A DNA stretch of 64,000 nucleotides from GCF_056746865.1 NZ_CM163382.1, one strand, 5' to 3'; positions 2,762 to 45,412 are shown, counted from the first letter of the stretch. The notes: a model not told the origin generated them from the letters alone. Program-made: numbers and translations.

Positions 2762-2836
2762 ATGAATATCTTACATATATGTGTGACCTCAAAATGGTTC
2801 AATATTGACAATAAGATTGTCGATCATCGCCCTTGA
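2762..2836 (+). CDS. tnaC: Tryptophanase operon leader peptide TnaC (24 aa; not in the ORF track)
   Basis: atgaatatcttacatatatgtgtgacctcaaaatggttcaatattgacaataagattgtcgatcatcgcccttga translates to MNILHICVTSKWFNIDNKIVDHRP*, the known TnaC sequence with Trp12 and the Pro24-stop stalling motif, about 220 bp upstream of tnaA. Confidence 0.9.
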   Translation: MNILHICVTSKWFNIDNKIVDHRP

Positions 2837-3041: not shown

Positions 3042-3056
3042 ATGAAGGATTATGTA

Positions 3057-4472
3057 ATGGAAAACTTTAAACATCTCCCTGAACCGTTCCGGATTCGTGT
3101 TATTGAGCCAGTAAAACGTACCACTCGCGCTTATCGTGAAGAGGCAATTATTAAATCCGGTATGAACCCGTTCCTGCTGGATAGCGAAGATGTGTTTATC
3201 GATTTACTGACCGACAGCGGCACCGGGGCGGTGACGCAGAGCATGCAGGCCGCGATGATGCGCGGCGACGAAGCTTACAGCGGCAGCCGCAGCTACTATG
3301 CGTTAGCCGAGTCAGTAAAAAATATCTTTGGTTATCAATACACTATTCCGACTCACCAGGGCCGTGGTGCAGAACAAATCTATATTCCGGTACTGATTAA
3401 AAAACGCGAGCAGGAAAAAGGCCTGGATCGCAGCAAAATGGTGGCGTTCTCAAACTATTTCTTTGATACCACGCAGGGCCATAGCCAGATTAACGGCTGT
3501 ACCGTGCGTAACGTCTATATCAAAGAAGCCTTCGATACGGGCGTGCGTTACGACTTTAAAGGCAACTTTGACCTCGAAGGATTAGAGCGCGGCATTGAAG
3601 AAGTTGGCCCGAATAACGTGCCGTATATCGTTGCAACCATCACCAGTAACTCCGCAGGCGGTCAGCCGGTTTCACTGGCAAACTTAAAAGCGATGTACAG
3701 CATCGCGAAGAAATACGATATTCCGGTGGTAATGGACTCCGCACGCTTTGCTGAAAACGCCTATTTCATCAAGCAGCGTGAAGCAGAATATAAAGACTGG
3801 ACCATCGAGCAGATCACCCGCGAAACCTACAAATATGCCGATATGCTGGCGATGTCCGCCAAGAAAGATGCGATGGTGCCGATGGGCGGCTTGCTGTGCA
3901 TGAAAGACGACAGCTTCTTTGATGTGTACACCGAATGCAGAACCCTTTGTGTGGTGCAGGAAGGCTTCCCGACATATGGTGGTCTGGAAGGCGGCGCGAT
4001 GGAGCGTCTGGCGGTAGGTCTGTATGACGGCATGAATCTGGACTGGCTGGCTTATCGTATCGCGCAGGTGCAGTATCTGGTCGATGGTCTGGAAGAGATT
4101 GGCGTTGTCTGCCAGCAGGCGGGCGGTCACGCGGCATTCGTTGATGCCGGTAAACTGCTGCCGCATATCCCGGCAGACCAGTTCCCGGCACAGGCGCTGG
4201 CCTGCGAGCTGTATAAAGTCGCCGGTATCCGTGCGGTAGAAATTGGCTCTTTCCTGTTAGGCCGCGATCCGAAAACCGGTAAACAACTGCCATGCCCGGC
4301 TGAACTGCTGCGTTTAACCATTCCGCGTGCAACATATACTCAAACACATATGGACTTCATTATTGAAGCCTTTAAACATGTGAAAGAGAACGCGGCGAAT
4401 ATTAAAGGGTTAACCTTTACCTACGAACCGAAAGTATTGCGTCACTTCACCGCAAAACTGAAAGAAGTTTAA
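3057..4472 (+). CDS. tnaA: Tryptophanase (tryptophan indole-lyase)
   Basis: Translation from the ATG at about 3057 ([26 protein letters not shown]...) matches remembered K-12 TnaA through ...FTAKLKEV. The track ORF starts 15 nt earlier at 3042 (MKDYV), which is probably not the native start. Confidence 0.95.
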
Positions 4473-4562
4473 TTAATACTACAGAGTGGCTATAAGGATG
4501 TTAGCCACTCTCTTACCCTACATCCTCAATAACAAAAATAGCCTTCCTCTAAAGGTGGCATC

Positions 4563-5810
4563 ATGACTGATCAAGCTGAAAAAAAACACTCTGCATTTTG
4601 GGGTGTTATGGTTATAGCAGGTACAGTAATTGGTGGAGGTATGTTTGCTTTACCTGTTGATCTTGCCGGTGCCTGGTTTTTCTGGGGTGCCTTTATCCTT
4701 ATCATTGCCTGGTTTTCAATGCTTCATTCCGGGTTGTTGTTATTAGAAGCAAATTTAAATTATCCCGTCGGCTCCAGTTTTAACACCATCACCAAAGATT
4801 TAATCGGTAACACCTGGAACATTATCAGCGGTATTACCGTTGCCTTCGTTCTCTATATCCTCACTTATGCCTATATCTCTGCTAATGGTGCGATCATTAG
4901 TGAAACGATATCAATGAATTTGGGTTATCACGCTAATCCACGTATTGTCGGGATCTGCACAGCCATTTTCGTTGCCAGCGTATTGTGGATAAGCTCGTTA
5001 GCCGCCAGTCGTATTACCTCGTTGTTCCTCGGGTTGAAGATTATCTCCTTTGTGATCGTGTTTGGTTCTTTCTTCTTCCAGGTCGATTATTCCATTCTGC
5101 GCGATGCCACCAGCACCACTGCGGGAACGTCTTACTCCCCGTATATCTTTATGGCTTTGCCGGTGTGTCTGGCGTCATTTGGTTTCCACGGCAATATTCC
5201 CAGCCTGATTATTTGCTATGGCAAACGCAAAGATAAGTTAATCAAAAGCGTGGTATTTGGTTCGCTGCTGGCGCTGGTGATTTATCTCTTCTGGCTCTAT
5301 TGCACGATGGGGAATATCCCGCGAGAAAGCTTTAAGGCGATAATCTCCTCAGGCGGCAACGTTGATTCGCTGGTCAAATCGTTCCTCGGCACCAAACAGC
5401 ACGGCATTATCGAGTTTTGCCTGCTGGTGTTCTCCAACTTAGCTGTTGCCAGTTCCTTCTTTGGTGTCACGCTGGGGTTGTTCGATTATCTGGCGGATCT
5501 GTTTAAGATTGATAACTCCCACGGCGGGCGTTTCAAAACCGTGCTGTTAACCTTCCTGCCACCTGCGTTGTTGTATCTGATCTTCCCGAACGGCTTCATT
5601 TACGGGATCGGCGGTGCCGGACTGTGTGCCACCATCTGGGCGGTCATTATCCCCGCGGTGCTGGCAATCAAAGCTCGCAAGAAGTTTCCCAATCAGATGT
5701 TCACGGTCTGGGGCGGCAATCTTATTCCGGCGATTGTCATTCTCTTTGGTATAACCGTAATTTTATGCTGGTTCGGTAACGTCTTTAACGTGTTACCTAA
5801 ATTTGGCTGA
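4563..5810 (+). CDS. tnaB: Low-affinity tryptophan permease
   Basis: 415-aa polytopic membrane protein (MTDQAEKKHSAFWGVMVIAGTVIGGGMFALP...) directly downstream of tnaA. Matches TnaB. Confidence 0.93.
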   Translation: MTDQAEKKHSAFWGVMVIAGTVIGGGMFALPVDLAGAWFFWGAFILIIAWFSMLHSGLLLLEANLNYPVGSSFNTITKDLIGNTWNIISGITVAFVLYILTYAYISANGAIISETISMNLGYHANPRIVGICTAIFVASVLWISSLAASRITSLFLGLKIISFVIVFGSFFFQVDYSILRDATSTTAGTSYSPYIFMALPVCLASFGFHGNIPSLIICYGKRKDKLIKSVVFGSLLALVIYLFWLYCTMGNIPRESFKAIISSGGNVDSLVKSFLGTKQHGIIEFCLLVFSNLAVASSFFGVTLGLFDYLADLFKIDNSHGGRFKTVLLTFLPPALLYLIFPNGFIYGIGGAGLCATIWAVIIPAVLAIKARKKFPNQMFTVWGGNLIPAIVILFGITVILCWFGNVFNVLPKFG

Positions 5811-5942
5811 TCCCTTCAAGAAGCCAGCCATTTCGCTGGCTTATTGCCTGTCAGGAAATCACTTATGTCCAAATGGCAACTCGCCTGATTCTCCTTCACC
5901 ACGTATGCTTTGCGTCACCTTACTATCAGGACGCTTTAGCCC

Positions 5943-7118
5943 ATGTCCCGCTTTTTGATTTGTAGTTTTGCCCTGGTTTTACTTTATCCCGCCGGGATTG
6001 ATATGTACCTCGTTGGTTTACCGCGCATCGCCGCCGATCTCAATGCCAGCGAAGCGCAGTTGCATATTGCGTTCTCCGTTTATCTGGCGGGCATGGCAGC
6101 TGCGATGTTATTTGCCGGTAAAGTGGCCGATCGTTCAGGGAGAAAGCCTGTCGCCATACCCGGCGCGGCGCTATTTATTATCGCCTCGGTGTTCTGTTCA
6201 CTGGCTGAAACCAGCACGTTATTTCTTGCAGGGCGCTTTCTACAGGGGCTGGGCGCGGGCTGTTGTTACGTGGTTGCGTTCGCCATTTTACGCGACACAC
6301 TGGATGATCGACGTCGGGCTAAAGTGCTGTCGTTACTCAACGGCATTACCTGCATCATTCCGGTGTTAGCGCCAGTGCTCGGACACCTGATTATGCTTAA
6401 ATTCCCGTGGCAGAGTCTGTTCTGGACGATGGCAACGATGGGCATCGCGGTACTGATGTTGTCTTTGTTTATTTTAAAAGAAACGCGCCCTGCGGCCCCC
6501 ACAAATTCGGACAAACCACGAGAAAATAGCGAGTCGCTGCTTAACCGGTTTTTCCTCAGCCGTGTTGTTATCACCACCCTCAGCGTTTCGGTGATCCTCA
6601 CCTTCGTCAACACGTCGCCGGTATTGCTGATGGAAATCATGGGTTTTGAGCGCGGAGAATACGCCACCATTATGGCGTTGACCGCTGGCGTCAGCATGAC
6701 CGTTTCATTCTCCACGCCATTTGCGCTGGGAATTTTTAAGCCACGTACGTTGATGATCACCTCGCAGGTATTATTCCTGGCGGCGGGCATCACCCTTGCC
6801 GTTTCACCTTCCCATGCGGTTTCTCTGTTTGGTATCACGCTGATTTGCGCCGGTTTCTCGGTAGGTTTTGGCGTAGCGATGAGTCAGGCGTTAGGGCCGT
6901 TTTCATTACGCGCGGGCGTAGCCAGCTCGACCTTAGGTATTGCGCAGGTTTGCGGTTCGTCACTGTGGATTTGGCTGGCAGCGGTGGTTGGTATCGGCGC
7001 ATGGAATATGCTGATCGGGATTCTGATTGCCTGTAGCATAGTGAGCCTGTTGCTGATTATGTTCGTCGCGCCTGGACGCCCGGTTGCCGCTCATGAAGAA
7101 ATCCATCACCACGCTTGA
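5943..7118 (+). CDS. mdtL: MFS multidrug efflux transporter MdtL
   Basis: 391-aa 12-TM MFS protein ([33 protein letters not shown]...). Position and sequence match K-12 MdtL. Confidence 0.9.
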
Positions 7119-8052
7119 TCTCAATCTGCTGCTCTGTCTGCAACTGCTGATGCAGGAGCGCAGCGTGACCAAAGCGGCGAAGCGGATGAACGTGACCCCT
7201 TCGGCGGTGAGTAAGTCGCTGGCAAAGTTAAGAGCGTGGTTTGACGACCCGCTCTTTGTGAACTCACCGCTGGGGCTGTCGCCCACACCGCTAATGGTCA
7301 GCATGGAGCAAAATCTGGCGGAGTGGATGCAAATGAGCAACCTGCTGCTGGATAAACCGCATCACCAAACACCGCGCGGCCTGAAGTTTGAGCTGGCGGC
7401 GGAATCGCCGCTGATGATGATCATGCTTAATGCGCTGTCGAAACGGATCTACCAACGTTACCCGCAGGCGACCATCAAATTACGTAACTGGGATTACGAT
7501 TCCTTAGATGCCATTACTCGTGGTGAAGTGGATATTGGTTTTTCCGGTCGCGAAAGTCATCCCCGTTCGCGGGAGCTGTTAAGCTCGCTACCGTTAGCCA
7601 TTGATTATGAAGTGCTGTTTAGTGATGTGCCCTGCGTCTGGTTACGCAAAGATCATCCGGCACTGCATGAAACGTGGAATCTGGACACCTTTTTACGTTA
7701 TCCGCATATCAGCATTTGCTGGGAACAGAGCGATACCTGGGCGCTGGACAATGTGTTACAGGAGCTGGGGCGCGAACGTACGATTGCAATGAGCCTGCCG
7801 GAATTCGAGCAGTCACTGTTTATGGCAGCACAGCCCGACAATCTGCTACTGGCGACCGCACCGCGCTACTGTCAGTACTACAATCAACTCCACCAACTGC
7901 CGTTGGTTGCTCTTCCTCTCCCGTTTGACGAAAGCCAGCAAAAAAAGCTGGAAGTCCCTTTTACCCTGCTGTGGCATAAACGGAACAGCCATAATCCGAA
8001 GATCGTCTGGTTACGGGAAACCATTAAACATCTTTACGCGTCGATGGCATAA
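7093..8052 (+). CDS. yidZ: LysR-family transcriptional regulator YidZ
   Basis: N-terminal helix-turn-helix ([43 protein letters not shown]) and LysR-like substrate domain. Start set at the MKKS methionine; the track ORF begins 9 nt earlier at 7084 and overlaps the mdtL 3' end. Confidence 0.85.
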
Positions 8053-8196
8053 CCGAATCGTATGAAACGCGACCCAATTTCACAATAAAATGTAAAAAAG
8101 TTGTAATAAGCTTGTCTGAATCGAACTTTTAGCCGCTTTAGTCTGTCCATCATTCCAGTAAATGATTACTCTTGTATTCATAATGGACCATTAAGC

Positions 8197-8958
8197 ATGG
8201 AGCGAAAAATGGCGACTCACTTTGCCCGAGGGATTTTAACGGAAGGACATCTGATTTCTGTTCGTCTCCCCTCCCATTGTCATCAAGAAGCCCGAAACAT
8301 TCCCCCTCATCGTCAAAGCCGTTTTCTGGCGTCCAGAGGTTTACTCGCAGAACTGATGTTCATGCTGTATGGCATTGGCGAATTGCCGGAAATCGTCACC
8401 CTGCCGAAAGGTAAACCGGTTTTCAGCGATAAAAATTTGCCTTCGTTTTCTATTTCCTATGCCGGGAATATGGTTGGCGTGGCGTTAACAACCGAAGGTG
8501 AATGTGGCCTCGATATGGAACTACAGCGTGCGACGCGCGGGTTTCATAGCCCACACGCGCCCGATAACCACACCTTTTCCAGCAATGAATCGCTATGGAT
8601 CAGTAAACAAAATGATCCAAACGAAGCGCGGGCGCAGCTCATCACGCTGCGCCGAAGCGTGCTAAAACTAACCGGTGATGTTTTGAATGACGATCCGCGC
8701 GATCTGCAGCTGCTGCCCATTGCCGGACGCCTGAAATGTGCTCATGTAAATCATGTAGAAGCGTTATGCGACGCGGAGGACGTGCTGGTGTGGTCCGTGG
8801 CGGTCACGCCCACGATTGAAAAGCTCAGTGTCTGGGAGTTAGATGGCAAACACGGCTGGAAAAGCCTGCCCGATATTCACAGCCGCGCCAACAATCCTAC
8901 CAGCCGGATGATGCGTTTTGCCCAGCTCTCTACCGTGAAGGCTTTTTCGCCAAATTGA
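8197..8958 (+). CDS. yieE: YieE, putative 4'-phosphopantetheinyl transferase family protein
   Basis: 253-aa ORF between yidZ and chrR, matching the remembered K-12 order. The function call rests on memory of the K-12 annotation, not on motifs I verified. Confidence 0.75.
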   Translation: MERKMATHFARGILTEGHLISVRLPSHCHQEARNIPPHRQSRFLASRGLLAELMFMLYGIGELPEIVTLPKGKPVFSDKNLPSFSISYAGNMVGVALTTEGECGLDMELQRATRGFHSPHAPDNHTFSSNESLWISKQNDPNEARAQLITLRRSVLKLTGDVLNDDPRDLQLLPIAGRLKCAHVNHVEALCDAEDVLVWSVAVTPTIEKLSVWELDGKHGWKSLPDIHSRANNPTSRMMRFAQLSTVKAFSPN

Positions 8959-8979
8959 TAGACAACCACAGGAGTCATC

Positions 8980-9546
8980 ATGTCTGAAAAATTGCAGGTG
9001 GTTACGTTACTGGGGAGCCTGCGCAAAGGCTCATTTAATGGCATGGTTGCACGTACCCTGCCGAAAATTGCTCCGGCGAGCATGGAAGTCAATGCGTTAC
9101 CTTCCATTGCCGACATTCCCTTGTATGACGCTGACGTACAGCAGGAAGAAGGTTTTCCAGCAACGGTTGAAGCTCTGGCGGAACAGATCCGTCAGGCTGA
9201 CGGTGTGGTGATCGTCACGCCGGAATATAACTACTCGGTACCGGGTGGGCTGAAAAATGCCATCGACTGGCTTTCCCGCCTGCCGGATCAACCTCTGGCC
9301 GGTAAACCGGTGTTGATTCAGACCAGCTCAATGGGCGTGATTGGCGGCGCGCGCTGTCAGTATCACCTGCGCCAGATTCTGGTTTTCCTCGATGCAATGG
9401 TGATGAACAAGCCGGAATTTATGGGCGGCGTGATTCAGAACAAAGTTGATCCGCAAACCGGAGAAGTGATTGATCAGGGTACGCTGGACCACCTGACCGG
9501 GCAATTAACCGCATTTGGTGAGTTTATTCAGCGAGTTAAGATCTAA
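8980..9546 (+). CDS. chrR: NAD(P)H-dependent FMN reductase / chromate reductase ChrR (YieF)
   Basis: 188-aa flavodoxin-like reductase (MSEKLQVVTLLGSLRKGSFNGMVARTL...). Sequence and position match K-12 YieF. Confidence 0.88.
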   Translation: MSEKLQVVTLLGSLRKGSFNGMVARTLPKIAPASMEVNALPSIADIPLYDADVQQEEGFPATVEALAEQIRQADGVVIVTPEYNYSVPGGLKNAIDWLSRLPDQPLAGKPVLIQTSSMGVIGGARCQYHLRQILVFLDAMVMNKPEFMGGVIQNKVDPQTGEVIDQGTLDHLTGQLTAFGEFIQRVKI

Positions 9547-9549
9547 ATA

Positions 9550-9584
9550 AAAAACCCGCCAGCAATCATGCATGGCGGGTTTTT
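9550..9584. terminator. Bidirectional rho-independent terminator between convergent chrR and adeP
   Basis: aaaaacccgccagcaatcatgcatggcgggttttt: GC stem flanked by an A-run and a T-run, lying between the chrR stop (9546) and adeP stop (9600). Confidence 0.75.
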
Positions 9585-9599
9585 AACGCGCTATCGATT

Positions 9600-10937
9600 T
9601 TAGTGAGCGTCGATAAACACAATCTTCAGGATAAACAGCAGCGCAACGATGATTACGCACGGGCTTAGATCACGCAGACGTCCGGTACCGATTTTCATCA
9701 CGCAGTAGGAGATAAAGCCCAGCGCAATACCTTCGGTAATCGAGAAGCTGAACGGCATCATCACAGCGGTAATAAACGCCGGAACAGATTCAGTAAGATC
9801 CTGCCAGTTCACGCGAGCAAGACTTGAGGTCATCAACACGCCAACGTAAATCAGCGCGCCAGCTGCGGCATATCCCGGCACCATTCCCGCCAGCGGCGAC
9901 AGGAAGATAACCAGCAGGAACAGCAGACCGACAACCACTGCCGTCAGACCGGTACGACCGCCAACGGAAACGCCGGAAGAGGACTCAATATACGCCGTAA
10001 CAGAAGAAGTCCCGATAAACGAACCGGTCACCGAAGAGATACTGTCGACATACAGCGCCTGCTTCATGCGCGGGAATTTACCTTTCTCATCCGCCAGACC
10101 TGCTTTATCGGTCACGCCAATCAGCGTACCGGAGGAGTCAAACAGGTTGACCAGCATGAAAGAGAAAATCACACCTGCCAGCCCGAGGTTAAACGACCCG
10201 GCTAAATCTACATGACCCACGACTGTCATTACGCTCGGCGGCGCAGAAACGATGCCATTGTAGTGGACATCACCCAACATCCAGCCCAGCAGCGTCGTCA
10301 CCACGATGGAAACCAGCACCGCCGCGTGAATGTTGCGCGAGGCCAGAATGGCGATGATGAAGAAGCCGAGGATCCCCAGCAGCACGCTGTGAGAAGTCAG
10401 ATTACCGATGCTCACCAGCGTTTCCGGGTTAGCGACAATCACACCTGCGTTTTTCAGCCCCATCATGCCAATAAACAGACCGATACCACTGGTGATGCCC
10501 ACACGTAGACTTACCGGAATGTTGGCTATCATCCAGTAGCGAACGCGGAATATCGTCAGTAACAGCAGACCAATCGCACCCCAGAAGATTGCGCCCATCC
10601 CGACTTGCCACGGCAAGCCCATCGCCTGTACAACGACAAAAGCGAAGAACGCATTCAGGCCCATTGCCGGTGCCAGCGCAACTGGCAGATTAGCAAACAG
10701 CCCCATCATAATACTGCCGAATGCAGCAATCAGACAGGTAGTAACGAAGACGGCGCTGGTATCCATGCCAGCAACGCCAAGAATTTGCGGGTTAACAAAA
10801 ACGATGTAAACCATCGTCAGGAAGGTGGTAAAACCGGCGATCACTTCGGTCCGTGCCGTCGTGCCATGTTCGCGCAGTTTAAACACGCGTTCCAGCATCC
10901 CCTGGCCAGAAGCCTGGGTTGTGTGTTGTTGACTCAT
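9600..10937 (-). CDS. adeP: Adenine permease AdeP (YieG), NCS2 family
   Basis: 445-aa polytopic transporter (MSQQHTTQASGQGMLERVFKLREHGTTARTEVIAGFTTFLTMVYIVFVNPQILG...) matching K-12 AdeP. Confidence 0.92.
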   Translation of the reverse strand: MSQQHTTQASGQGMLERVFKLREHGTTARTEVIAGFTTFLTMVYIVFVNPQILGVAGMDTSAVFVTTCLIAAFGSIMMGLFANLPVALAPAMGLNAFFAFVVVQAMGLPWQVGMGAIFWGAIGLLLLTIFRVRYWMIANIPVSLRVGITSGIGLFIGMMGLKNAGVIVANPETLVSIGNLTSHSVLLGILGFFIIAILASRNIHAAVLVSIVVTTLLGWMLGDVHYNGIVSAPPSVMTVVGHVDLAGSFNLGLAGVIFSFMLVNLFDSSGTLIGVTDKAGLADEKGKFPRMKQALYVDSISSVTGSFIGTSSVTAYIESSSGVSVGGRTGLTAVVVGLLFLLVIFLSPLAGMVPGYAAAGALIYVGVLMTSSLARVNWQDLTESVPAFITAVMMPFSFSITEGIALGFISYCVMKIGTGRLRDLSPCVIIVALLFILKIVFIDAH

Positions 10938-11103
10938 TATCTATTTCCGAACAAGGAGGGAAAATCCGTCGCTATCGTATACCAAAATGAGACAATATGG
11001 ACGGCTGAAGATAACTTTTTTTCATTGTATTTGCTTATACGGCAACGATTGCGTCATGCGATTTGGCATGACGAAAACGTTAAACTAACGATAAAGGAAA
11101 GAC

Positions 11104-11769
11104 ATGTCCCAGATAGAAGCGGTATTTTTCGACTGCGACGGTACGCTGGTCGATAGCGAGGTCATTTGCTCTCGCGCCTATGTCACGATGTTCAGGGAAT
11201 TTGGCATTCACGTTGAGCTGGAAGAGATTTTTACCCGTTTTAAAGGCGTAAAACTCTACGAAATCATCGACATCATCAGTAAAGAACAGGGCGTGACGAT
11301 GATCCAGGCCGATGCCGAGCACGTTTACCGCGCAGAAGTAGCTCGTCTGTTTGATACCGAACTTGAGGTCATCGCAGGAGCGAACGAATTGCTGGCGAGC
11401 ATTAACGTGCCGATGTGCGTTGTCTCTAATGGCCCGGTGAAAAAAATGCAGCATTCGCTCGGCAAACTCAACATGCTGCACTACTTCCCGGAAAAACTGT
11501 TCAGCGGTTACGACATTCAGCGTTGGAAGCCCGATCCGGCATTAATGTTCCATGCGGCAAAAGCGATGAATGTGAACGTTGAAAACTGCATTCTGGTCGA
11601 TGACTCCAGCGCCGGCGCGCAATCAGGGATAGATGCCGGAATGGAAGTGTTTTACTTCTGCGCTGACCCGCACAATAAACCGATCGTTCACCCGAAAGTC
11701 ACCACCTTTACCGAGCTGGCGCAGCTGCCTGCACTCTGGAAGGCACGCGGCTGGAAGATAACGCGATAA
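11104..11769 (+). CDS. yieH: HAD-superfamily phosphatase YieH
   Basis: 221-aa ORF with HAD motif I (FFDCDGTLVDSE) at the N-terminus. Matches K-12 YieH. Confidence 0.9.
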   Translation: MSQIEAVFFDCDGTLVDSEVICSRAYVTMFREFGIHVELEEIFTRFKGVKLYEIIDIISKEQGVTMIQADAEHVYRAEVARLFDTELEVIAGANELLASINVPMCVVSNGPVKKMQHSLGKLNMLHYFPEKLFSGYDIQRWKPDPALMFHAAKAMNVNVENCILVDDSSAGAQSGIDAGMEVFYFCADPHNKPIVHPKVTTFTELAQLPALWKARGWKITR

Positions 11770-19970: not shown

Positions 19971-20696
19971 TTACTCTTTCGGGTCTTTTCCGGCCAGCAG
20001 TTTATCCAGCTCATCACCGCCTACATGACGGAAATCCTGCCCCTTCACGTAGTAGAAGATAAACTCACAAATATTCTGGCAGCGGTCGCCGATACGTTCG
20101 ATTGAACGCGCACAGAATAGCGCGGTAAGTACGCTCGGAATGGTGCGCGAATCTTCCATCATGTAGGTCATCAGTTGACGAACAATACCTTCGTACTCCT
20201 GATCGACTTTTTTATCTTCACGATAAATACGTACCGCTTCGTCAATGTCCATCCGCGCGAACGCGTCCAGCACGTCGTGCAGCATCTGGATGGTATGACG
20301 GCCCAGCGACTCCAGACTTACCAGCAACGGCTGATGCTGCTGGGAGAATTTCTCCAGCGCAGTACGGCAGATTTTGTCCGCCACGTCGCCAATACGCTCC
20401 AGCTCGGCAATGGTTTTACTGATCACCATAACCAGACGCAGGTCGCTCGCCGTCGGCTGACGTTTGGCGATAATGCGCACGCAGGCTTCATCGATCGCCA
20501 CTTCCATCATGTTGACGTTCTTGTCGCCTTCGATGACGCGCTTCGCCAGATCGCTGTCCTGGTTATGCATCGCGGTGATTGCATCAGAAAGCTGCTGCTC
20601 CACCATGCCGCCCATGGTCATCACCTGCGTGCGGATGCTTTCCAGTTCGGCGTTGAACTGGCCGGAAATATGTTTATTAAGATTGAGACTGTCCAT
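19971..20696 (-). CDS. phoU: Phosphate signalling regulator PhoU
   Basis: Translation from [24 protein letters not shown]... matches K-12 PhoU (241 aa). The track ORF starts 6 codons earlier. Confidence 0.95.
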
Positions 20697-24629: not shown

Positions 24630-24660
24630 ATGTAAGGTTTATGACAGTTTTATGACAAAT
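24630..24660 (-). promoter_or_regulatory. PhoB-binding Pho box(es) of the pstS promoter
   Basis: The minus strand reads ctgtcataaaactgtcataaaccttacatataactgtcac, matching the Pho-box consensus CTGTCATA(A/T)A(A/T)CTGTCA(C/T) about 80-100 bp upstream of the pstS start. Confidence 0.8.
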
Positions 24661-24799
24661 CAGAATTATTAATTAACTTTTTGATTTTATTGACTAAGAA
24701 AAAGAAAAGTAGTGTCATCTTTTTGTCATGCAAAGTGAAAACTCGCGGACAAAAATGCGTAAGATGACAACGGTGTGAGGAACACCGCGGTCAGTTCGT

Positions 24800-25870
24800 T
24801 TAGCGTACAATCTCAATTGTTATCGTTGCAGTCGCGGTAAATGTTCCTGGCGCGGGGCGAGCCCCCGTGAGGCTTGCAGGAGCAGCAGAAAAAGTGACGC
24901 TACCGGCTTTTTCACCAAAGACGTTTGATTTACCCATATCTGTCGGTAGTTCACCACCGTTAACGTTGATTTCCTTATTATTTTTATCATAAATTTTTAT
25001 CCCAACGTTCGGGTTTGATGTCACGACCATTGAGTTGTCAGTACTGGGTTCGGTAGCATAAAAAGAGGTACTGATATCATCAGTATTTAGTATTCCTAAA
25101 TTTTCACACTCAATGGTGACGGTTTTGGTAATTTTATGCGTTGTCACGGTACTTCCAGCTACCGAAGAAAAATCTGCTGCAGGAATTTCTTTAAAATCAA
25201 AATTAATGGGTCTTAAACTGTTAATTTCACAGCTTTGCGGTGCAGTGATATCGCCACGAATATAAACATCGGCCATAGGTTGTGAGTAATCAACCGGAGT
25301 GTCACGGCTTATAGTTCCGTACAATTTTGCCACGAGAGTTTCAGGGACAATTAACTTTCCAGCAAAAGTCTTCTTAATATAAAAATAAATTATTGCTTTT
25401 GCACCACTGGAAATACTTAATGGGTCCGTGCGACTACATTTATATGAACCTCCAGTAGGCCTGTTAGCATGGTATTCAAAAGGTGCATTAATGTATCCTA
25501 CACCGAGAAGGTCTATCGATATTCCAACATCCAGATTAGGATTCAAATTAAAGTAGTTTACATTAGAACGAACACCCGCATAACTTAAGGCCTCGTTTAT
25601 TCTCGCTGTATAGTAAATATAAGGAAACTCCCCCACTTTCCCTGTATCACAATGGCAGTGAGCAGGATAAGAGTCCCCATTTGTCACGGTTTTATTAAAG
25701 GTCTCTCCCACTCTGTTCTCGTCTGCCGTAATCAGATAGCCGGAAAAATCAAGTGTGCTATGAAAGGCCCCATTATCTGAGGTGCAGATACCTTTTGGGG
25801 CCGCAAATGTTGCACCACTAAAGGAGAAGATAAAAACAGTCAAGCACCACTGTATAATATACTTGTTCAT
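24800..25870 (-). CDS. Fimbrial tip adhesin-like subunit of a chaperone-usher operon (LpfD-like)
   Basis: 356-aa secreted protein (signal peptide MNKYIIQWCLTVFIFSFSGATFA) and last gene of a subunit-chaperone-usher-adhesin cluster. The two-domain size is typical of tip adhesins. Confidence 0.7.
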   Translation of the reverse strand: MNKYIIQWCLTVFIFSFSGATFAAPKGICTSDNGAFHSTLDFSGYLITADENRVGETFNKTVTNGDSYPAHCHCDTGKVGEFPYIYYTARINEALSYAGVRSNVNYFNLNPNLDVGISIDLLGVGYINAPFEYHANRPTGGSYKCSRTDPLSISSGAKAIIYFYIKKTFAGKLIVPETLVAKLYGTISRDTPVDYSQPMADVYIRGDITAPQSCEINSLRPINFDFKEIPAADFSSVAGSTVTTHKITKTVTIECENLGILNTDDISTSFYATEPSTDNSMVVTSNPNVGIKIYDKNNKEINVNGGELPTDMGKSNVFGEKAGSVTFSAAPASLTGARPAPGTFTATATITIEIVR

Positions 25871-25880
25871 AAAAATCCTT

Positions 25881-28403
25881 TTAATGACATGTCACACCTT
25901 GTTCAATTAAGCCGCTTTCACTTTCTGGTATTGAAAGTGAATAATCGAAGGTGCATGTAGTGGCGGCATTTTCCCCCCAGGAGAGCATCACTTGCCCCTT
26001 TTCAGGAAGGCCGGAGAGATAAAGCTCCCCCAGGTCACCGACAATCCCTGAATCAGCAGAGCTTGTATTTTGTACGGCAGCAATAGCGCCAAAAGGTGCT
26101 GGCTTACCTTTTGCATTCACCACTTTGAAGAGTACGCGATAGCCCACGTGGGTAACAAATTCTGCTTTAACCACCGCGCCACGGGTGGGAACCATCGTAA
26201 CGACGGTATTATCAAGTTCTATATTCGACTTCGAGAAATAGTTATCGCTGATTGCTACCCGGTTTTCATCATAAGGGTTTAGCTGTGTCTTGACCGTATA
26301 ACCACGCCAGTCCGTCGCAGCACCACGCATATTGTCTATTTCTAACCCGGCAGCCCCTGGTGCTTTAACAAGAGCTATGGTTTCACCCAACTCCTGGCTT
26401 AACGTTACGCCTTCGCTGTGAGCCAGAATTCCCCCTCTGATACCATAATTCAGCCTCTGAGAATTTTGGCTGTAGTTATAGCTGCCGTTCACCGTGCCAT
26501 AAGTGCCATCATAGGTCAGGGACATATTACCGCCAACCTCATCATCATGGCTGTTATAGGACTGCATTAAATTCCAGGAAAGGTTATTTCTTTCCAGCGC
26601 CGTACCGCTGAGTCCAAGTTGATGTGAGCTACCGGAATTATCGTTTTGCGATACAGAATAGGTGGCGTAACTATTCCCCCACCAGCCCGATAAAGGAACA
26701 GATAAAGAGAGCATGTAGATCTGCTCACTGGTGTTATCACTGGCATTGTTGTTCCCCGTCCCCTGCCGGGCAGTATTGGAATAACTCCAGGAGACGTTCC
26801 ACGAGAGACGCTTCCAGCTACTGCTGTAGCCAAATTGCATTAATCGTTCAACATCATCGGTATGCCAGTACTGCTGGCGACTTAATGTCAGATATAAGTT
26901 GCCATAATCTCTGCCCAGTGATTGCGTTAACGTTCCTTCCACACGGCTGCGGCGGTTACCGGTTTCCCAGAAATCTTCAGGATTATTACGCCGGGACGCC
27001 CATTCATTGAGGGTATAATAACCTTCGGTGGAGTAACGATAGCCAACCAGGCGCAAGCTGGTATCCGTATCGTCAAAGCGTTTCGAGTACAGGAAGCGAT
27101 AAGACTGACCGGTTTCCGTATCATCATGGCTAAATTTCGCGCGAGCATGTGTCACATCGAAAGAAATTGCGCCCAATGCGCCAAGATCTTTACCGACACC
27201 CAAAGCGGCAGAACCATACTTTTCAGCAGCCTGCATACCTCCATATAAGGTGAAACCGTAGGGAAAACCATGAAGGATCTGAGCCTGAATAACGTCAGGG
27301 GTAAAGCCATCTTCATCGCGTAATTCTCCCACACTGACATCAACATCAGTTTGACCTTCACGTTTGAGGATGGCTAACGACGCATAAGGTTGAGTAAATC
27401 GTTGTTCGCTACCGTCTTCTTCTTTGATGGTTACGTCCAGATCACCACCTGTACTGGCGGTGTTGAGATCGGTAATTTCAAAAGCACCTTGTGGAACGGC
27501 TGACTGATAAATCACGTAGCCATTCTGGCGAATAATGACAGTGGCGTTAGACTTTGCAATCCCACGCACTACGGGGGCAAATCCGTTTTGGCTGGCAGGC
27601 AACATATCGTTATCGGTATACAAGCGTGCGCCACGAATTTGCGTACTGTCGAAGATATCGCTCGCCGTCCACGTATCACCTATCATAATCTGGCTTCTTA
27701 ACGCAGCTATATCACGTTGTATCCAGGTGCTTATAGAGTTGTATTCTGCACTGCCATCGGTCGTATTTAAGGTGCTGTAATTGCGTAATCGCCACGGCCC
27801 AATATTCAGTCCATTGCGCAGATTGAGATAACTGGTATCTGTCTCTTGTGAACCATAATCCGAACGTAGAGTATGTGAACCAGAAAAATCGTAGTTGATG
27901 GTGAGCGCGTTAATCCCCTCATCCCAACGCGAGGGGCTGATGTAATCATAAGCCATCGCATCCATATAGATTTGGGGAATGGAGATATTCAGTTGCAGTT
28001 TATCGCTGTCGAACTGCCATGATGAGCCTTCAATGCGTGGCCCAGGATCAATACAGACTGTTTCATCTACATCATTGAGCGATTTCAGCGCATCAACTTT
28101 TACGCCAAAGGTGGTTAGCGTTTTTTTAATAGCGACAAAGCAGGCGTGTAAATCAGCATCGGGATTATCCTGAACAAAGGTCACATCCTGACGTTCAAAC
28201 ATTTTACCGTTGATAAAAATATCAACGCTATAAACACCTGGGGGCATCAGGTTTGCCCGATTAAACTGGCGAATATCGACTCCGGATTGATGGTCGATTT
28301 CCAGAAGCGCCGGATTGAATACACTGACCTCGGCCATCAGGCTTTGCGAGAAAATCAGACACGTCCCTGCCGTGAGGCCAACCTTTATTCTGGTCGTCAT
28401 CAT
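25881..28403 (-). CDS. Fimbrial outer-membrane usher (LpfC/FimD-like)
   Basis: 840-aa ORF with N-terminal signal sequence and the FNPALLEID motif. Size and position match a chaperone-usher-pathway usher. Confidence 0.88.
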   Translation of the reverse strand: MMTTRIKVGLTAGTCLIFSQSLMAEVSVFNPALLEIDHQSGVDIRQFNRANLMPPGVYSVDIFINGKMFERQDVTFVQDNPDADLHACFVAIKKTLTTFGVKVDALKSLNDVDETVCIDPGPRIEGSSWQFDSDKLQLNISIPQIYMDAMAYDYISPSRWDEGINALTINYDFSGSHTLRSDYGSQETDTSYLNLRNGLNIGPWRLRNYSTLNTTDGSAEYNSISTWIQRDIAALRSQIMIGDTWTASDIFDSTQIRGARLYTDNDMLPASQNGFAPVVRGIAKSNATVIIRQNGYVIYQSAVPQGAFEITDLNTASTGGDLDVTIKEEDGSEQRFTQPYASLAILKREGQTDVDVSVGELRDEDGFTPDVIQAQILHGFPYGFTLYGGMQAAEKYGSAALGVGKDLGALGAISFDVTHARAKFSHDDTETGQSYRFLYSKRFDDTDTSLRLVGYRYSTEGYYTLNEWASRRNNPEDFWETGNRRSRVEGTLTQSLGRDYGNLYLTLSRQQYWHTDDVERLMQFGYSSSWKRLSWNVSWSYSNTARQGTGNNNASDNTSEQIYMLSLSVPLSGWWGNSYATYSVSQNDNSGSSHQLGLSGTALERNNLSWNLMQSYNSHDDEVGGNMSLTYDGTYGTVNGSYNYSQNSQRLNYGIRGGILAHSEGVTLSQELGETIALVKAPGAAGLEIDNMRGAATDWRGYTVKTQLNPYDENRVAISDNYFSKSNIELDNTVVTMVPTRGAVVKAEFVTHVGYRVLFKVVNAKGKPAPFGAIAAVQNTSSADSGIVGDLGELYLSGLPEKGQVMLSWGENAATTCTFDYSLSIPESESGLIEQGVTCH

Positions 28404-28427
28404 AATACGCCTATCCTTTTCCCTTGC

Positions 28428-29159
28428 TTACAGCGTCATTTTTATCGGGTCACTGACTGCGCCGTAATCATTAATAAATCGCCAGATCATTTGGCCTCCC
28501 GCAGAATTAGCAGGTAAAGGTAACGTGAGCGTTTCAAAAGGACGGATCATGTTGAGGGGCACATCATGACCATCAACGATGACATCCATCACACTGATAT
28601 GAATCGGGTTGGGATTCTCTACAATCAGGTTTCGCCCTTCCCGGTGCCACTTCACCTTCGGTGCAGCATCTTCGGGAATCAGGCGAATGCTTGCCGGTCG
28701 CCAGAACAGCTTGATACGCGTTTTAACTGCGATTTCCAGTGAGTTCGCCGCTTTGTTGCTCGCAGAGGGCGGAATATTTTTAATATTCAGCCAGAAGACT
28801 GACTCGCGATCATCAGGCAATGACACACCTTTGGTATGAATAATGCGTAATACTTTTTCTTGCGCGGGTTCTAATCGTGATACCGGAGGAATAACGGTAA
28901 ACGGTGCTTTGCTTTTATCCTCTTTATTAAACGGATCTACCCATGCCTGGATGAGATAAGGAATTTTTTCTTCCTTGCTAAATACAGAAATAGATTTATC
29001 TGGGTTATTACTTAAGTAAACTACCCGTGTACCACCAATGACAACGCCTGCATAGGTTAATGCTGGTTGGACTAAAAAAACACTGAGTATAATCGCGGTA
29101 AATAACTTACATGAAACGGTTGTTTTAAAGAGCCTGATTAAACAACTTTTTCTGGACAT
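28428..29159 (-). CDS. Periplasmic fimbrial chaperone (PapD/FimC-like)
   Basis: 243-aa ORF with signal peptide and chaperone-like motifs (VVIGGTRVVY; NPxxxP-like region). It sits between the major subunit and the usher. Confidence 0.85.
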   Translation of the reverse strand: MSRKSCLIRLFKTTVSCKLFTAIILSVFLVQPALTYAGVVIGGTRVVYLSNNPDKSISVFSKEEKIPYLIQAWVDPFNKEDKSKAPFTVIPPVSRLEPAQEKVLRIIHTKGVSLPDDRESVFWLNIKNIPPSASNKAANSLEIAVKTRIKLFWRPASIRLIPEDAAPKVKWHREGRNLIVENPNPIHISVMDVIVDGHDVPLNMIRPFETLTLPLPANSAGGQMIWRFINDYGAVSDPIKMTL

Positions 29160-29206
29160 AACGACTCCCTGGCCAAAGCCAACTGAATAAAAAGGCCCTT
29201 GATAAA

Positions 29207-29779
29207 TTATTTCTTATATTCGACAGTAAATTGTGAATCGGCGTTCGCCGTACCCGCCGTTACAGTTGCATTGGTTGCCACATAGCGTGCAATAAACTTC
29301 ATTTCAGCCTTGCCTTCAGCGTCGATAGCGGTATAGGCAGAATCGTTATAAAGTTTAACCTGCGAGTTATCTGACTGGTTAAAAATACGAATACCGACAC
29401 CCGTTGCCGCAATCGCTTGTCCTGTACCGGTAAAATCGCCAGGGTTGCCCGCTGTAAGCGGCGTACCCACTTTCAGGTCGCCGTCGCCGCCAGGCGCTTC
29501 TGTACCATCAAAACGAACGGCTGCCTGAGTGTAGGTTGCCGGGCACTTTTCAAGTTTAATACTGAACTGCTGTGGTGACGCCAGACTACCTACACCTGAA
29601 AAAGCATTTTTACTGACTTTACCCAGTGGTACGGTTTGATCGGCTGTATCGGAGGTAACTTCACAAGTAGTGTCGACAATTTCACCGACGAAGTGAACAA
29701 CACCATCTTCTGCCAGTGCATGTCCGGCCAGCATTAAAGATGCCAGAGTGAATGCACCGCCTATAATATTACGCTTCAT
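29207..29779 (-). CDS. Major fimbrial subunit (type 1 / Lpf-like pilin)
   Basis: 190-aa ORF with signal peptide (MKRNIIGGAFTLASLMLAGHALA), a conserved Cys pair and a C-terminal beta-strand motif (FTVEYKK) typical of chaperone-usher pilins. First gene of the cluster, with an AT-rich region upstream. Confidence 0.85.
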   Translation of the reverse strand: MKRNIIGGAFTLASLMLAGHALAEDGVVHFVGEIVDTTCEVTSDTADQTVPLGKVSKNAFSGVGSLASPQQFSIKLEKCPATYTQAAVRFDGTEAPGGDGDLKVGTPLTAGNPGDFTGTGQAIAATGVGIRIFNQSDNSQVKLYNDSAYTAIDAEGKAEMKFIARYVATNATVTAGTANADSQFTVEYKK

Positions 29780-29999
29780 AAAAACTCCATTGATATAATA
29801 TATCCTTTACCATGAATCATCACTTATATTAATAAGTGTATTTTTGATCCAAAGGAATAGTACACCAAAGAGACAACTTTATCTAAAAATAATATTAATT
29901 ACTCAATCTTAAATATAAATTTATTATTTAAATATTATTAAAACAGCAAGAAATCAAGTTTATTATCAGACATTAGCAATAATTCAGAATATATTTATA

Positions 30000-30750
30000 T
30001 CAATGGGCATATGAATAATGGAATTATTGATATCACTTATAATAAATATCCTCCGGCATAGCCGGAGGTTTTTCAAATGCGCCTATAAGGCTCTCTTACC
30101 AGCCGCGCCCTAACAGGCGCACACGATCTGACATTTGCATCCAACTTCGTTACTTACGGCCCGTAAACGGGCTGCCCGGATAGGGAATCGATAACTGCTC
30201 TCCCATTTTATCCTCTTCAAGCTGGTGCTTTATGTAATCCTGTATCTTCGCCGTGTTCTTACCCACTGTATCGACGTAGTACCCTCTGCACCAGAACTCC
30301 CTGTTCCTGTATTTGAATTTCAAATCACCAAACTGCTCGTAAAGCATCAGACTGCTTTTCCCTTTCAGATATCCCATAAACCCGGATACGCTCATTTTAG
30401 GCGGGATCTCCACAAGCATATGGATATGATCTGCACAGCATTCAGCTTCCAGAATCCGTACGCTTTTCCACTCACACAGCTTTCTCAAAATACTGCCTAT
30501 TGCTCTACGCTTCTCTCTGTAGAACACCTGTCTTCGGTATTTTGGCGCAAAAACTATGTGATATTTACAGTTCCATCGGGTGTGCGCTAAGCTCTTTTCG
30601 TTCCCCATTGGGACCCCCTTTTGATTTCTTGTTTGACACTTGCAGTTGCCAGACCGCAAGGTGTTTTAACAAATCAAAAGGGGTTTTAATAACTGGCTCA
30701 AAGCTGAAAGCTTTCCGGAACCCCCAGCCTAGCTGGGGGTTTTCTGTGCA
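30000..30750 (-). mobile_element. IS200/IS605-family insertion element (single tnpA); boundaries approximate
   Basis: Contains an IS200-type HUH transposase ORF flanked by sub-terminal hairpins (cctccggcatagccggagg at about 30050; cccccagcctagctggggg at about 30722). Exact ends were not determined. Confidence 0.6.
30150..30608 (-). CDS. tnpA: IS200-type transposase TnpA (HUH, Y1 family)
   Basis: MGNEKSLAHTRWNCKYHIVFAPKYRRQVFY...ADHIHMLVEIPPK... carries the HUH motif (HIH) and the conserved IS200 TnpA N-terminus. The track ORF starts 17 codons earlier at 30659. Confidence 0.88.
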   Translation of the reverse strand: MGNEKSLAHTRWNCKYHIVFAPKYRRQVFYREKRRAIGSILRKLCEWKSVRILEAECCADHIHMLVEIPPKMSVSGFMGYLKGKSSLMLYEQFGDLKFKYRNREFWCRGYYVDTVGKNTAKIQDYIKHQLEEDKMGEQLSIPYPGSPFTGRK

Positions 30751-30759
30751 CAAAAAAGG

Positions 30760-30792
30760 GCCGCCGGTCGGCAGCCCTTTTCTATCAACGAG
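30760..30792 (-). terminator. glmS rho-independent terminator
   Basis: Minus strand reads aaaagggctgccgaccggcggccctttttt immediately after the glmS stop. Confidence 0.75.
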
Positions 30793-30797
30793 AGATA

Positions 30798-42700: not shown

Positions 42701-44590
42701 TTATGCGCTACGACGCAGCATACCCTGTTTTTTCAGCCACACCAGCAGAATGGAGATGGCCGCAGGCGTGACGCCAGAAATACGCGAAGCCTGACCGATA
42801 GAGGCCGGTTTGTGATCGTTAAGTTTGGCGATCACTTCGTTAGAAAGACCGGATACCTGGCGGTAATCCAGCGTCGCTGGTAGCAGGGTGTTCTCGTTAC
42901 GCAGCTGCTTTTCGATCTCATCTTGCTGGCGCGCGATATAACCTTCGTATTTAACCTGAATCTCAACCTGTTCCGCCGCCTGTTCGTCTGTCAACGCAGG
43001 GGCAAACGGCGTCAGCGTGGTTAATTTTTCATAAGTCATTTCCGGACGACGCAGCAGATCTTCACCACTGGCTTCACGGGAAAGTGGCGCAGTCAGGTGA
43101 GCATTCACTTCGGCTGCAGCTTCCGCCGACGGGGTTACCCAGGTCGATTTCAGACGCTGACGCTCACGCTCGATATTCTCAAGTTTCTCGTTAAAGCGCG
43201 CCCAACGTTCGTCATCCACCAGGCCCAGTTCACGACCGATTTCAGTCAAACGCAGATCCGCATTATCTTCGCGCAGCATCAGACGATATTCTGCGCGCGA
43301 AGTAAACATACGATACGGTTCTTTGGTTCCTAAAGTGCACAGGTCATCAACCAGTACGCCGAGATACGCCTGAGAACGCGCCGGAGCCCAACCTTCTTTG
43401 TCAGCAGACAGACGGGCAGCGTTAAGACCAGCCAGCAAACCTTGCGCAGCGGCTTCTTCGTAACCGGTAGTGCCGTTAATCTGACCAGCAAAGAACAGCC
43501 CCTGGATAAACTTGCTCTCCAGCGTCGGTTTCAGGTCGCGTGGATCGAAGAAGTCATACTCAATGGCATAACCCGGACGCACGATCTTCGCGTTTTCCAT
43601 CCCCTGCATGGAGCGGACGATTTGCATCTGCACATCGAACGGCAGGCTGGTGGAGATACCGTTCGGATAAATTTCGTTTGAGGTCAGCCCTTCCGGTTCA
43701 AGGAAGATCTGATGCTGATTTCTGTCGGCGAAGCGCATGACTTTGTCTTCGATCGACGGGCAGTAGCGTGGGCCGACACCTTCGATCACCCCTGCATACA
43801 TTGGGCTACGATCGAGGTTACTGCGGATCACATCATGGGTTTTCTCGTTGGTATGGGTGATATAACACGGCACCTGCTGTGGATGCTGGGACGCATTACC
43901 CATAAACGAGAATACCGGCATTGGGTTATCGCCATGCTGTTGCGCCAGCACGCTGAAGTCGATAGTACGCGCATCAATACGCGGCGGTGTCCCGGTTTTC
44001 AGACGACCAACGCGCAGCGGCAGTTCACGCAAACGGCGAGAGAGCGGAATGGACGGCGGATCACCAGCACGACCACCGCTGTAGTTATCCAGACCGATAT
44101 GAATTTTACCGTCGAGGAACGTCCCAACGGTGAGCACGACGGCTTTGGCACGGAACTTCAGTCCCATTTGGGTAACAGCACCAACCACGCGATCGTTTTC
44201 GACAATAAGATCTTCAACCGCCTGCTGGAAGATCATCAGGTTCGGTTGGTTCTCCAGCGCCGTACGTACCGCCTGCCGGTAGAGCACACGATCCGCCTGA
44301 GCACGGGTAGCGCGAACCGCTGGTCCCTTGCTTGCGTTTAGTATCCTAAACTGGATACCCGCCTGATCGATCGCTTTCGCCATCAGACCGCCGAGTGCAT
44401 CCACTTCTTTTACCAGATGTCCCTTCCCAATACCGCCGATCGCCGGGTTGCAGCTCATCTGCCCCAGAGTGTCGATATTGTGTGTCAAAAGCAGAGTCTG
44501 TTGACCCATACGCGCCGCGGCCATCGCGGCCTCGGTGCCTGCATGACCCCCGCCAATGATGATGACGTCAAAAGGATCCGGATAAAACAT
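42701..44590 (-). CDS. mnmG: tRNA uridine-5-carboxymethylaminomethyl modification enzyme MnmG (GidA)
   Basis: 629 aa; N-terminal FAD-binding motif ([15 protein letters not shown]). Confidence 0.96.
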
Positions 44591-44678
44591 GGTGATTGCC
44601 TCGCATAACGCGGTATGAAAATGGATTGAAGCCCGGGCCGTGGATTCTACTCAACTTTGTCGGCTTGAGAAAGACCTG

Positions 44679-44950
44679 GGATCCTGGGTATTAAAAAGAA
44701 GATCTATTTATTTAGAGATCTGTTCTATTGTGATCTCTTATTAGGATCGCACTACCCTGTGGATAACAAGGATCCAGCTTTTAAGATCAACAACCTGGAA
44801 AGGATCATTAACTGTGAATGATCGGTGATCCTGGACCGTATAAGCTGGGATCAGAATGAGGGGTTATACACAACTCAAAAACTGAACAACGGTTGTTCTT
44901 TGGATAACTACCGGTTGATCCAAGCTTCCTGACAGAGTTATCCACAGTGG
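44679..44950. other. Chromosomal replication origin oriC (DnaA boxes R1-R4, three AT-rich 13-mers, GATC cluster)
   Basis: 13-mers gatctatttattt (44701-44713), gatctgttctatt (44717-44729) and gatctcttattag (44732-44744); DnaA box R1 tgtggataa (44758-44766) and R4 ttatccaca (44938-44946); dense GATC sites. Near-identical to my memory of the K-12 minimal oriC, located between mnmG and mioC. Confidence 0.95.
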
Positions 44951-44968
44951 ATCGCACGATCTGTATAC

Positions 44969-45412
44969 TTATTTGAGTAAATTAATCCACGATCCCAGCC
45001 ATTCTTCTGCCGGATCTTCCGGAATGTCGTGATCAAGAATGTTGATCTTCAGTGTTTCGCCTGTCTGTTTTGCACCGGAATTTTTGAGTTCTGCCTCGAG
45101 TTTATCGATAGCCCCACAAAAGGTGTCATATTCACGACTACCAATACCGATTGCGCCAAAGCGGACCGCAGAAAGATCGGGCTTCTGTTCCTGCAATGCT
45201 TCATAGAAAGGAGAAAGGTTGTCCGGAATATCTCCGGCACCGTGGGTTGAGCTGATAACCAGCCAGATCCCCGAGGCAGATAAATCTTCCAACAGCGGAC
45301 CGTGCAGCGTTTCGGTGGTAAAACCCGCCTCTTCCAGCTTTTCAGCCAGGTGTTCTGCCACATATTCGGCACCGCCGAGGGTGCTGCCGCTGATAAGAGT
45401 GATATCTGCCAT
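44969..45412 (-). CDS. mioC: Flavodoxin-like FMN-binding protein MioC
   Basis: 147 aa (MADITLISGSTLGGAEYVAEHLAEKLEEAGF...), adjacent to oriC. Confidence 0.94.
   Translation of the reverse strand: MADITLISGSTLGGAEYVAEHLAEKLEEAGFTTETLHGPLLEDLSASGIWLVISSTHGAGDIPDNLSPFYEALQEQKPDLSAVRFGAIGIGSREYDTFCGAIDKLEAELKNSGAKQTGETLKINILDHDIPEDPAEEWLGSWINLLK

Follow-up and report, generated by a model that had tools for sequence, protein, structure and literature searches.

The oriC of an Escherichia coli chromosome differs from that of K-12 by four substitutions at variable positions

[quoted passage not shown] The supplement to that work prints the MG1655 sequences of 13-mer R (GATCTCTTATTAG), of the DnaA boxes I1 (TTATACGGT), I2 (CTGATCCCA), C3 (TTGTTCTTT), R3 (TTATCCAAA) and R4 (TTATCCACA) and of the IHF site (GATCAACAACCTG). 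Within each array the low-affinity sites are exactly 2 bp apart, and C1 stands 3 bp from R4 (Leonard and Grimwade, 2015; PMC4451416). Fis sites have been reported in the interval from R2 to C3, and one of these extends into C3. Many deletions of whole boxes from oriC are viable. In oriC131 Fis site I is wholly scrambled; initiation timing is normal and a slight asynchrony is seen in fast growth only (PMC3865182). In oriC160 the 77 bp to the right of R4 (275–352) are removed, leaving the origin without the right-hand Fis site, and the origin concentration is about 10% lower (PMC3865182; Weigel 2001, cited in PMC4585315). In competition with the wild type, mutant origins reportedly lose (Weigel 2001). 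For tau1, Sakiyama et al. (2017; PMC5716108) state that this 9-bp box contains a GATC, that all but two of its base pairs are covered by the 33-bp IHF footprint, and that a tau1-null substitution leaves unwinding, complex formation and the in vivo control of initiation unaffected.

The window, by which we mean the whole stretch of 64,000 nucleotides analysed here (GCF_056746865.1, NZ_CM163382.1), contains an E. coli replication origin that can be recognized by direct reading in 44400–45200. It occupies 44679–44960 and, as in other E. coli-type origins, lies in the interval between mnmG (gidA) and mioC. A megablast search with 44500–45100 gave matches in 5,424 of 5,426 complete E. coli genomes, all of them chromosomal and flanked by annotated mnmG and mioC. 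The ungapped alignment to MG1655 (NC_000913.3) sets the window coordinate equal to the K-12 coordinate minus 3,881,043; the window is collinear with K-12 at oriC, and the annotated MG1655 oriC (3925744..3925975) corresponds to 44701..44932. The left BamHI site (GGATCC) starts at 44679, and we take its first G to be position 1 of the classic oriC numbering, which is used for all oriC positions given here.

The site map (Table 1) was made from the sequence and then checked against the MG1655 elements printed in the supplement of PMC4585315 and against the spacing rules of PMC4451416. The 13-mers L, M and R are identical to those of K-12 and all three begin with GATCT. The high-affinity boxes R1, R2 and R4 each match TTWTNCACA at 8/8 positions. 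The two opposed arrays, R5M-tau2-I1-I2 and C3-C2-I3-C1, keep their 2-bp spacing, with 3 bp between C1 and R4. An IHF site is present between R1 and R5M, and a predicted Fis site matching the consensus is present between R2 and C3 in both the window and K-12. There are eleven GATC sites in the minimal origin (44701–44945) and 13 in 44679–44960, at the same positions as in K-12. By every sequence criterion tested, the window oriC is the E. coli oriC.

Table 1. Coordinates of the origin elements, the differences from K-12, the flanking genes and a fimbrial operon in the window.
Feature	Coordinates	Strand	Remarks
mnmG (gidA) CDS	42701..44590	-	Left neighbour of oriC; K-12 b3741, 3923744-3925633, via the offset
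AT-rich cluster left of 13-mer L	44689..44700		Identical to K-12; given as conserved in PMC4585315
DUE 13-mer L GATCTATTTATTT	44701..44713	+	Read directly; identical to K-12
DUE 13-mer M GATCTGTTCTATT	44717..44729	+	Identical to K-12
DUE 13-mer R GATCTCTTATTAG	44732..44744	+	Identical to K-12; equals the MG1655 R 13-mer in the PMC4585315 supplement
SNP 1	44754 (oriC position 76)		Window A, K-12 G (gcactAccctgtggataa); in the 13-bp spacer from 13-mer R to R1, 4 bp from R1
DnaA box R1	44758..44766	-	TTATCCACA on the minus strand, reads TGTGGATAA; intact; 8/8 consensus in window and K-12
Low-affinity box tau1 (approximate)	44769..44777	-	Putative; placed from the GATC at 44771-44774
SNP 2	44776 (oriC position 98)		Window A, K-12 G; at or in tau1, outer flank of the IHF footprint
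Primary IHF site core GATCAACAACCTG	44785..44797	+	Intact; equals the MG1655 IBS, PMC4585315 Supplementary Figure S7
DnaA box R5M TCATTCACA	44813..44821	-	Identical to K-12
DnaA box tau2	44824..44832	-	From the 2-bp spacing rule (PMC4451416); identical to K-12
DnaA box I1 TTATACGGT	44835..44843	-	PMC4585315 Supplementary Figure S3; identical to K-12
DnaA box I2 CTGATCCCA	44846..44854	-	PMC4585315 Supplementary Figure S4; identical to K-12
DnaA box R2 TTATACACA	44864..44872	+	8/8 consensus match
Palindrome matching the Fis consensus GNNYANNNNNTRNNC	44884..44898		GAACAAC-G-GTTGTTC; between R2 and C3, overlaps C3
SNP 3	44891 (oriC position 213)		Window G, K-12 A; centre of the Fis consensus, 2 bp left of C3
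DnaA box C3 TTGTTCTTT	44893..44901	+	PMC4585315 Supplementary Figure S5; identical to K-12
DnaA box R3 TTATCCAAA	44899..44907	-	Overlaps C3 and C2; 7/8 consensus; PMC4585315 Supplementary Figure S5
DnaA box C2	44904..44912	+	From the 2-bp spacing rule; identical to K-12
DnaA box I3	44915..44923	+	From the 2-bp spacing rule; identical to K-12
DnaA box C1 TTCCTGACA	44926..44934	+	3 bp from R4 (PMC4451416); identical to K-12
DnaA box R4 TTATCCACA	44938..44946	+	Intact; 8/8 consensus; PMC4585315 Supplementary Figure S6
SNP 4	44949 (oriC position 271)		Window G, K-12 A (cacagtGgatcgc); 3 bp right of R4
mioC CDS	44969..45412	-	Right neighbour of oriC; K-12 b3742, 3926012-3926455, via the offset
Fimbrial operon, StgD/LpfD-like tip	24800-25870	-	
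Fimbrial operon, usher	25881-28403	-	
Fimbrial operon, chaperone	28428-29159	-	
Fimbrial operon, major subunit	29207-29779	-	

Exact alignment with MG1655 over the 378-bp mnmG–mioC intergenic region gave exactly four substitutions and no indels (1.06%). The substitutions at oriC positions 76, 98, 213 and 271 are the only respect in which the window origin differs from that of MG1655; the location, length, spacing, 13-mers, all mapped boxes, IHF core and GATC sites are the same. An earlier note on this DNA had described oriC as conserved with a few point differences from K-12 and with the 13-mers and boxes R1 and R4 intact, and the alignment bears this out. The two differences that it quoted, beside R1 and R4, are real (44754 and 44949) and the K-12 sequence that it gave was accurate, but it left the other two (44776 and 44891) unnamed. 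All four lie outside the 13-mers, the eleven mapped DnaA boxes, the 13-bp IHF core and the GATC sites, and there is no SNP or indel relative to K-12 in 44813–44854 or 44893–44946. Positions 76, 98 and 213 are within the minimal origin. Position 271 is three bases past R4 and thus 3 bp beyond the 245-bp minimal oriC, which ends just to the right of that box; it also lies to the left of the 275–352 segment deleted in oriC160. The earlier note had further held that such differences would matter only if they fell in low-affinity DnaA, IHF or Fis sites. The mapping puts none in the mapped boxes or the IHF core; positions 98 (9 bp upstream of that core, in the outer flank of the protected region) and 213 touch softer elements, and these two are polymorphic in E. 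coli and unconstrained across the Enterobacterales.

The mapped elements cover ∼54% of 44679–44960, and the chance that four random substitutions would miss all of them is ∼0.05, which is compatible with, and weakly suggestive of, purifying selection on the elements. The origin is, if anything, slightly less diverged from K-12 than its surroundings, with 1.22% divergence in the minimal origin and the intergenic value given above against 1.75% in mnmG, 1.80% in mioC and 1.96% in asnC. Two further ways in which the origin might have been altered were considered and ruled out: a hidden indel that changes site spacing, by the gap-free MG1655 alignment, and the gain or loss of a DnaA box or GATC through one of the SNPs, as only trivial 5/8 matches change.

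Allele frequencies were counted among the 5,426 complete E. coli genomes by megablast with 55-mers centred on each SNP; the counts are allele-specific because every 28-nt seed must include the variant base. A76 is present in 368 genomes, 167 of which also have A98, and A98 is present in 169 (∼3%), 168 of them with A76. G271 occurs in 550 genomes, including CE10 and IAI39. Position 213 is tri-allelic: 1,317 genomes have G (∼24%), 1,313 have the K-12 allele A (∼24%), which is thus in the minority, and at least 2,249 have C (at least 41%). The count for C is a lower bound because ∼545 genomes were seeded by none of the three position-213 queries; these probably have variants close by on both sides, as in a sampled ST131 genome. 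An exact 97-mer with A76 and A98 was found in 156 genomes. In the 601-bp search (44500–45100), sampled at even spacing down the ranking, row ∼140 was still 100% identical to the window and the next sampled row was not. From the 97-mer count and this ranking, the complete 601-bp haplotype is carried by ∼140–156 genomes (2.6–2.9%), among them E. coli 118UI (NZ_CP032515.1).

When 15 representative E. coli origins are aligned, the four alleles appear in varied combinations. In the same alignment other natural variants hit functional elements: 13-mer R in O157:H7, box I1 in UTI89 and C3/R3 in O103:H2. The O157:H7, UTI89 I1 and C3/R3 T>C variants are already tabulated in PMC4585315. In O157:H7-type origins (PV15-279, our L128, and L126) 13-mer R starts with T instead of G (TATCTCTTATTAG; TATC rather than GATC), which destroys one GATC/SeqA site in the unwinding element and is documented in Supplementary Figures S1–S2 of PMC4585315; this variant is more intrusive than any SNP in the window.

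Variability between species was assessed with a pattern extending from 13-mer R to R1, which was searched against species-representative genomes and gave at least 120 loci; 113 were aligned over the whole origin with MAFFT. The set includes E. albertii, E. whittamii, Salmonella, Citrobacter, Klebsiella, Enterobacter, Serratia and Yersinia; it covers the matches listed and favours origins in which the R 13-mer and R1 are conserved, and the spacer columns of distant species depend on the alignment. Column entropies over these 113 Enterobacterales species, among the matches listed, agree with the known architecture, showing the boxes, GATC sites and IHF core bases to be near-invariant and the spacers free. 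The four SNP columns are among the most variable ones, with entropies, among the matches listed, of 1.82 bits at 44754 (95th percentile), 1.87 bits at 44776 (97th), 1.55 bits at 44891 (85th) and 1.58 bits at 44949 (87th). Their mean is 1.71 bits against 0.73 bits for all columns, and among the matches listed only 0.05% of random four-column sets (∼0.0005) are this variable when the columns fixed by the search pattern are excluded.

The alleles themselves recur beyond E. coli to different degrees. A76 is also found in E. albertii, S. enterica arizonae and C. sedlakii. At position 213, 59 of the 113 species among the matches listed have G, 32 have A, 20 have C and two have T, the majority G including Salmonella, Citrobacter, Klebsiella and Enterobacter. 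Position 271 in the same set, again among the matches listed, is A in 39 species, C in 34 and T in 40; G271 was seen in none of the 113 other species. Chance at an unconstrained column is the sole explanation that we can offer for the restriction of G271 to E. coli in this set. The suggestion of the earlier note that the differences may be ordinary strain polymorphisms is well supported by these data, every allele being common to many E. coli genomes and the positions being variable across the Enterobacterales.

Position 98 touches tau1 and the flank of the IHF site. Between R1 and the IHF core there is a single GATC, at 44771–44774, which places tau1 at ∼44769–44777 and the SNP at 44776 in it or at its edge. 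Text searches of PMC5716108, PMC3287180 and PMC5742627 returned properties of tau1 and not its register; we infer both this placement of tau1 and that of Fis site I described below. When oriC was scanned with the 33-mer initiation-stage IHF consensus quoted in a 2023 review (PMC10380432), the best match was 44762–44794 on the minus strand, partly overlapping R1. Its score, 15/18 in K-12, is 14/18 in the window, where the SNP alters consensus position C19. The match is probably the proposed secondary IHF site IBS2, which is described as partly overlapping R1 and was put forward from a consensus match rather than demonstrated as a site. The tau1 box was reported as fully conserved in the 59 genomes of PMC4585315, whereas about 3% of the genomes counted here carry a variant base at position 98, which is at or in this box.

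A 15-bp palindrome (GAACAAC-N-GTTGTTC, 44884–44898) is centred on position 213; it is the only perfect (6/6) match in oriC, in the window as in K-12, to the Fis consensus GNNYANNNNNTRNNC taken from PMC10380432 and PMC4585315. The palindrome fits the location reported for Fis sites and is likely to be Fis site I. The consensus match is unchanged by the SNP because the base sits at an unspecified consensus position. G213 does change the central 5 bp from ACAGT to ACGGT, raising the number of G/C pairs from two to three. According to PMC3711457 and PMC4784862, Fis reads a narrow, A/T-rich minor groove at the centre of its site and G/C pairs there lower the affinity. A modest weakening of Fis binding relative to K-12 is thus conceivable, since G213 adds a third G/C pair to the centre; PMC4784862 also reports that one G/C pair in the centre of a site does not prevent high-affinity binding. 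The Fis site was reported as fully conserved in the 59 genomes of PMC4585315, yet the centre of the Fis consensus is tri-allelic here, so the bar marking the Fis site in that work evidently leaves out the central base.

The reading that we favour, with a probability of roughly 0.9, is that this is a standard functional E. coli oriC in which the four differences are ordinary neutral polymorphism forming a natural lineage haplotype. To judge from the comparisons above, the SNP positions are under little or no constraint: two are plain spacer, one is in or beside the dispensable tau1, and one is the unspecified centre of a Fis site. The identity of the mapped elements and the presence of the haplotype in about 150 viable isolates argue that the window oriC would support DnaA-dependent initiation, and the element identity, allele frequencies and cross-species variability that initiation should be the same as in K-12. 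[quoted passage not shown] The known mutants tau1non, oriC131 and oriC160 perturb the neighbourhoods of the SNPs at 98, 213 and 271, respectively, but they destroy whole elements, whereas the single-base changes in the window keep every consensus match except one position of a hypothetical site. Since mutants that destroy an element are mild, little or no effect is expected of single substitutions at unspecified or unconstrained positions.

The differences are not noise in the data: sequencing or assembly error is a general possibility with nothing further in its favour, and it is refuted by the identical 601 bp of at least about 140 complete genomes that were sequenced independently, 118UI among them, and by the occurrence of each allele in 169–1,317 genomes. 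A functional alternative is that the haplotype tunes the regulation of the origin, G213 weakening Fis site I and A98 altering tau1 or IBS2 so as to shift the Fis-to-IHF switch and with it timing or synchrony in fast growth. What speaks for this is the position of the SNP at 44891 in the centre of the only perfect Fis consensus of oriC, where G/C pairs reduce binding, the drop in the 33-mer IHF match at a position that its authors call core (PMC10380432), and the near-complete linkage of A98 to A76 (168/169 genomes). We nevertheless consider it quite improbable. A position that is tri-allelic at high frequency, with G the majority among other Enterobacterales in the matches listed, does not have the pattern of a tuned site; a Fis site with one central G/C pair retains high affinity (PMC4784862) and K-12 already has two; and even the scrambling of Fis site I in oriC131 yields slight asynchrony only. 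On the IHF side, tau1 is dispensable according to PMC5716108, its region is poorly conserved between species among the matches listed, and IBS2 is a hypothesis from a consensus match. The more specific proposal that E. coli has three common natural alleles of Fis site I, of which the K-12 A should bind best, with different set-points of the Fis-to-IHF switch in the G213 and A98 lineage, is a similarly long shot. Set against neutrality are the third central G/C pair of G213, the loss of the C19 match with A98, the rarity of A76 with A98 (∼3%) and the absence of G271 from the other species surveyed; subtle quantitative effects on the timing or synchrony of initiation may exist.

A separate question is the origin of the haplotype rather than its function. 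A76 and A98 might have entered the lineage together by recombination from a divergent Escherichia lineage instead of arising as two local mutations. The E. coli-labelled species representative SCPM-O-B-8794 (our L029), 97.7% identical to the window in oriC, shares A76 and A98 but agrees with K-12 at 213 and 271; A76 is also present in E. albertii; and the occurrence of A76 in 368 genomes and of A76 with A98 in about 167 suggests a nested history. The window, though, has none of the other differences specific to SCPM-O-B-8794 (44661, 44677, 44751, 44811 and 44931–44932), so any imported tract would be shorter than about 60 bp, and the variability of both columns between species makes recurrent mutation equally plausible. 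We regard such an import as rather unlikely. SCPM-O-B-8794 itself has six private differences, two of them in box C1 (44931–44932) and common to E. albertii and E. whittamii, and is probably a divergent or cryptic Escherichia lineage. As for the window strain, its haplotype or a neighbouring island is shared with strains 118UI, NMBU-W13E19, SCU-313 and LR-58-2; in PMC7952442, ST69 isolates have the first three as their closest matches in the database. By this indirect route, the strain is probably ST69-related, as the strains that share its haplotype or island match ST69 isolates.

The remainder of the window is less uniform in its relation to K-12. Positions 1–11754 (yidC to yieH, including tnaAB and mdtL) are 96.4% identical to K-12 with 26 gap openings, and 30796–64000 (glmS to rrlC, including oriC) are 98.7% identical with six; this uneven divergence may reflect the history of recombination around variable islands. 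Between yieH and phoU, an 8.2-kb segment (11755–19983) stands in place of K-12 cbrB, cbrC, yieK, yieL and bglHBFG. Its large open reading frames (11906–14257 on the minus strand, 15397–16584 on the plus strand and 17054–19573 on the minus strand) have weak pentapeptide-repeat matches only; the three proteins have no NCBIfam family and a PADLOC scan of them found nothing. RefSeq names for the matching genes are 'T3SS effector EspY4', 'type III effector protein' and 'pentapeptide repeat-containing protein'. An IS1 transposase fragment (14288–14791) is present as well; the segment as a whole is covered to at least 80% in 683 genomes, and most close relatives are without the IS1 piece (91% coverage, 100% identity). 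A second region that is not in K-12 is a 6.1-kb insertion between pstS and glmS (24658–30795), which holds a chaperone–usher fimbrial operon (Table 1) and, adjoining glmS, an IS200/IS605-family transposase (30150–30659). Stg/Lpf2-type fimbriae at the glmS–pstS site are a known island.

The window differences avoid the binding sites, the same conclusion as that of the catalogue in PMC4585315. The finding is therefore already known in kind, and its small addition concerns two positions that the catalogue took to be conserved or spacer: the variation at position 98 and the three alleles at position 213, with that of K-12 in the minority. The window holds a normal origin, and it illustrates the published pattern in which variation in oriC spares the protein-binding elements and gathers in the spacers. 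The polymorphism at the central base of the Fis consensus is relevant to anyone extending the biochemistry of Fis at oriC from K-12 to other strains. Were the improbable difference in set-points real, the lineage of the window would run the Fis-to-IHF initiation switch in a way measurably unlike that of the textbook K-12 origin.
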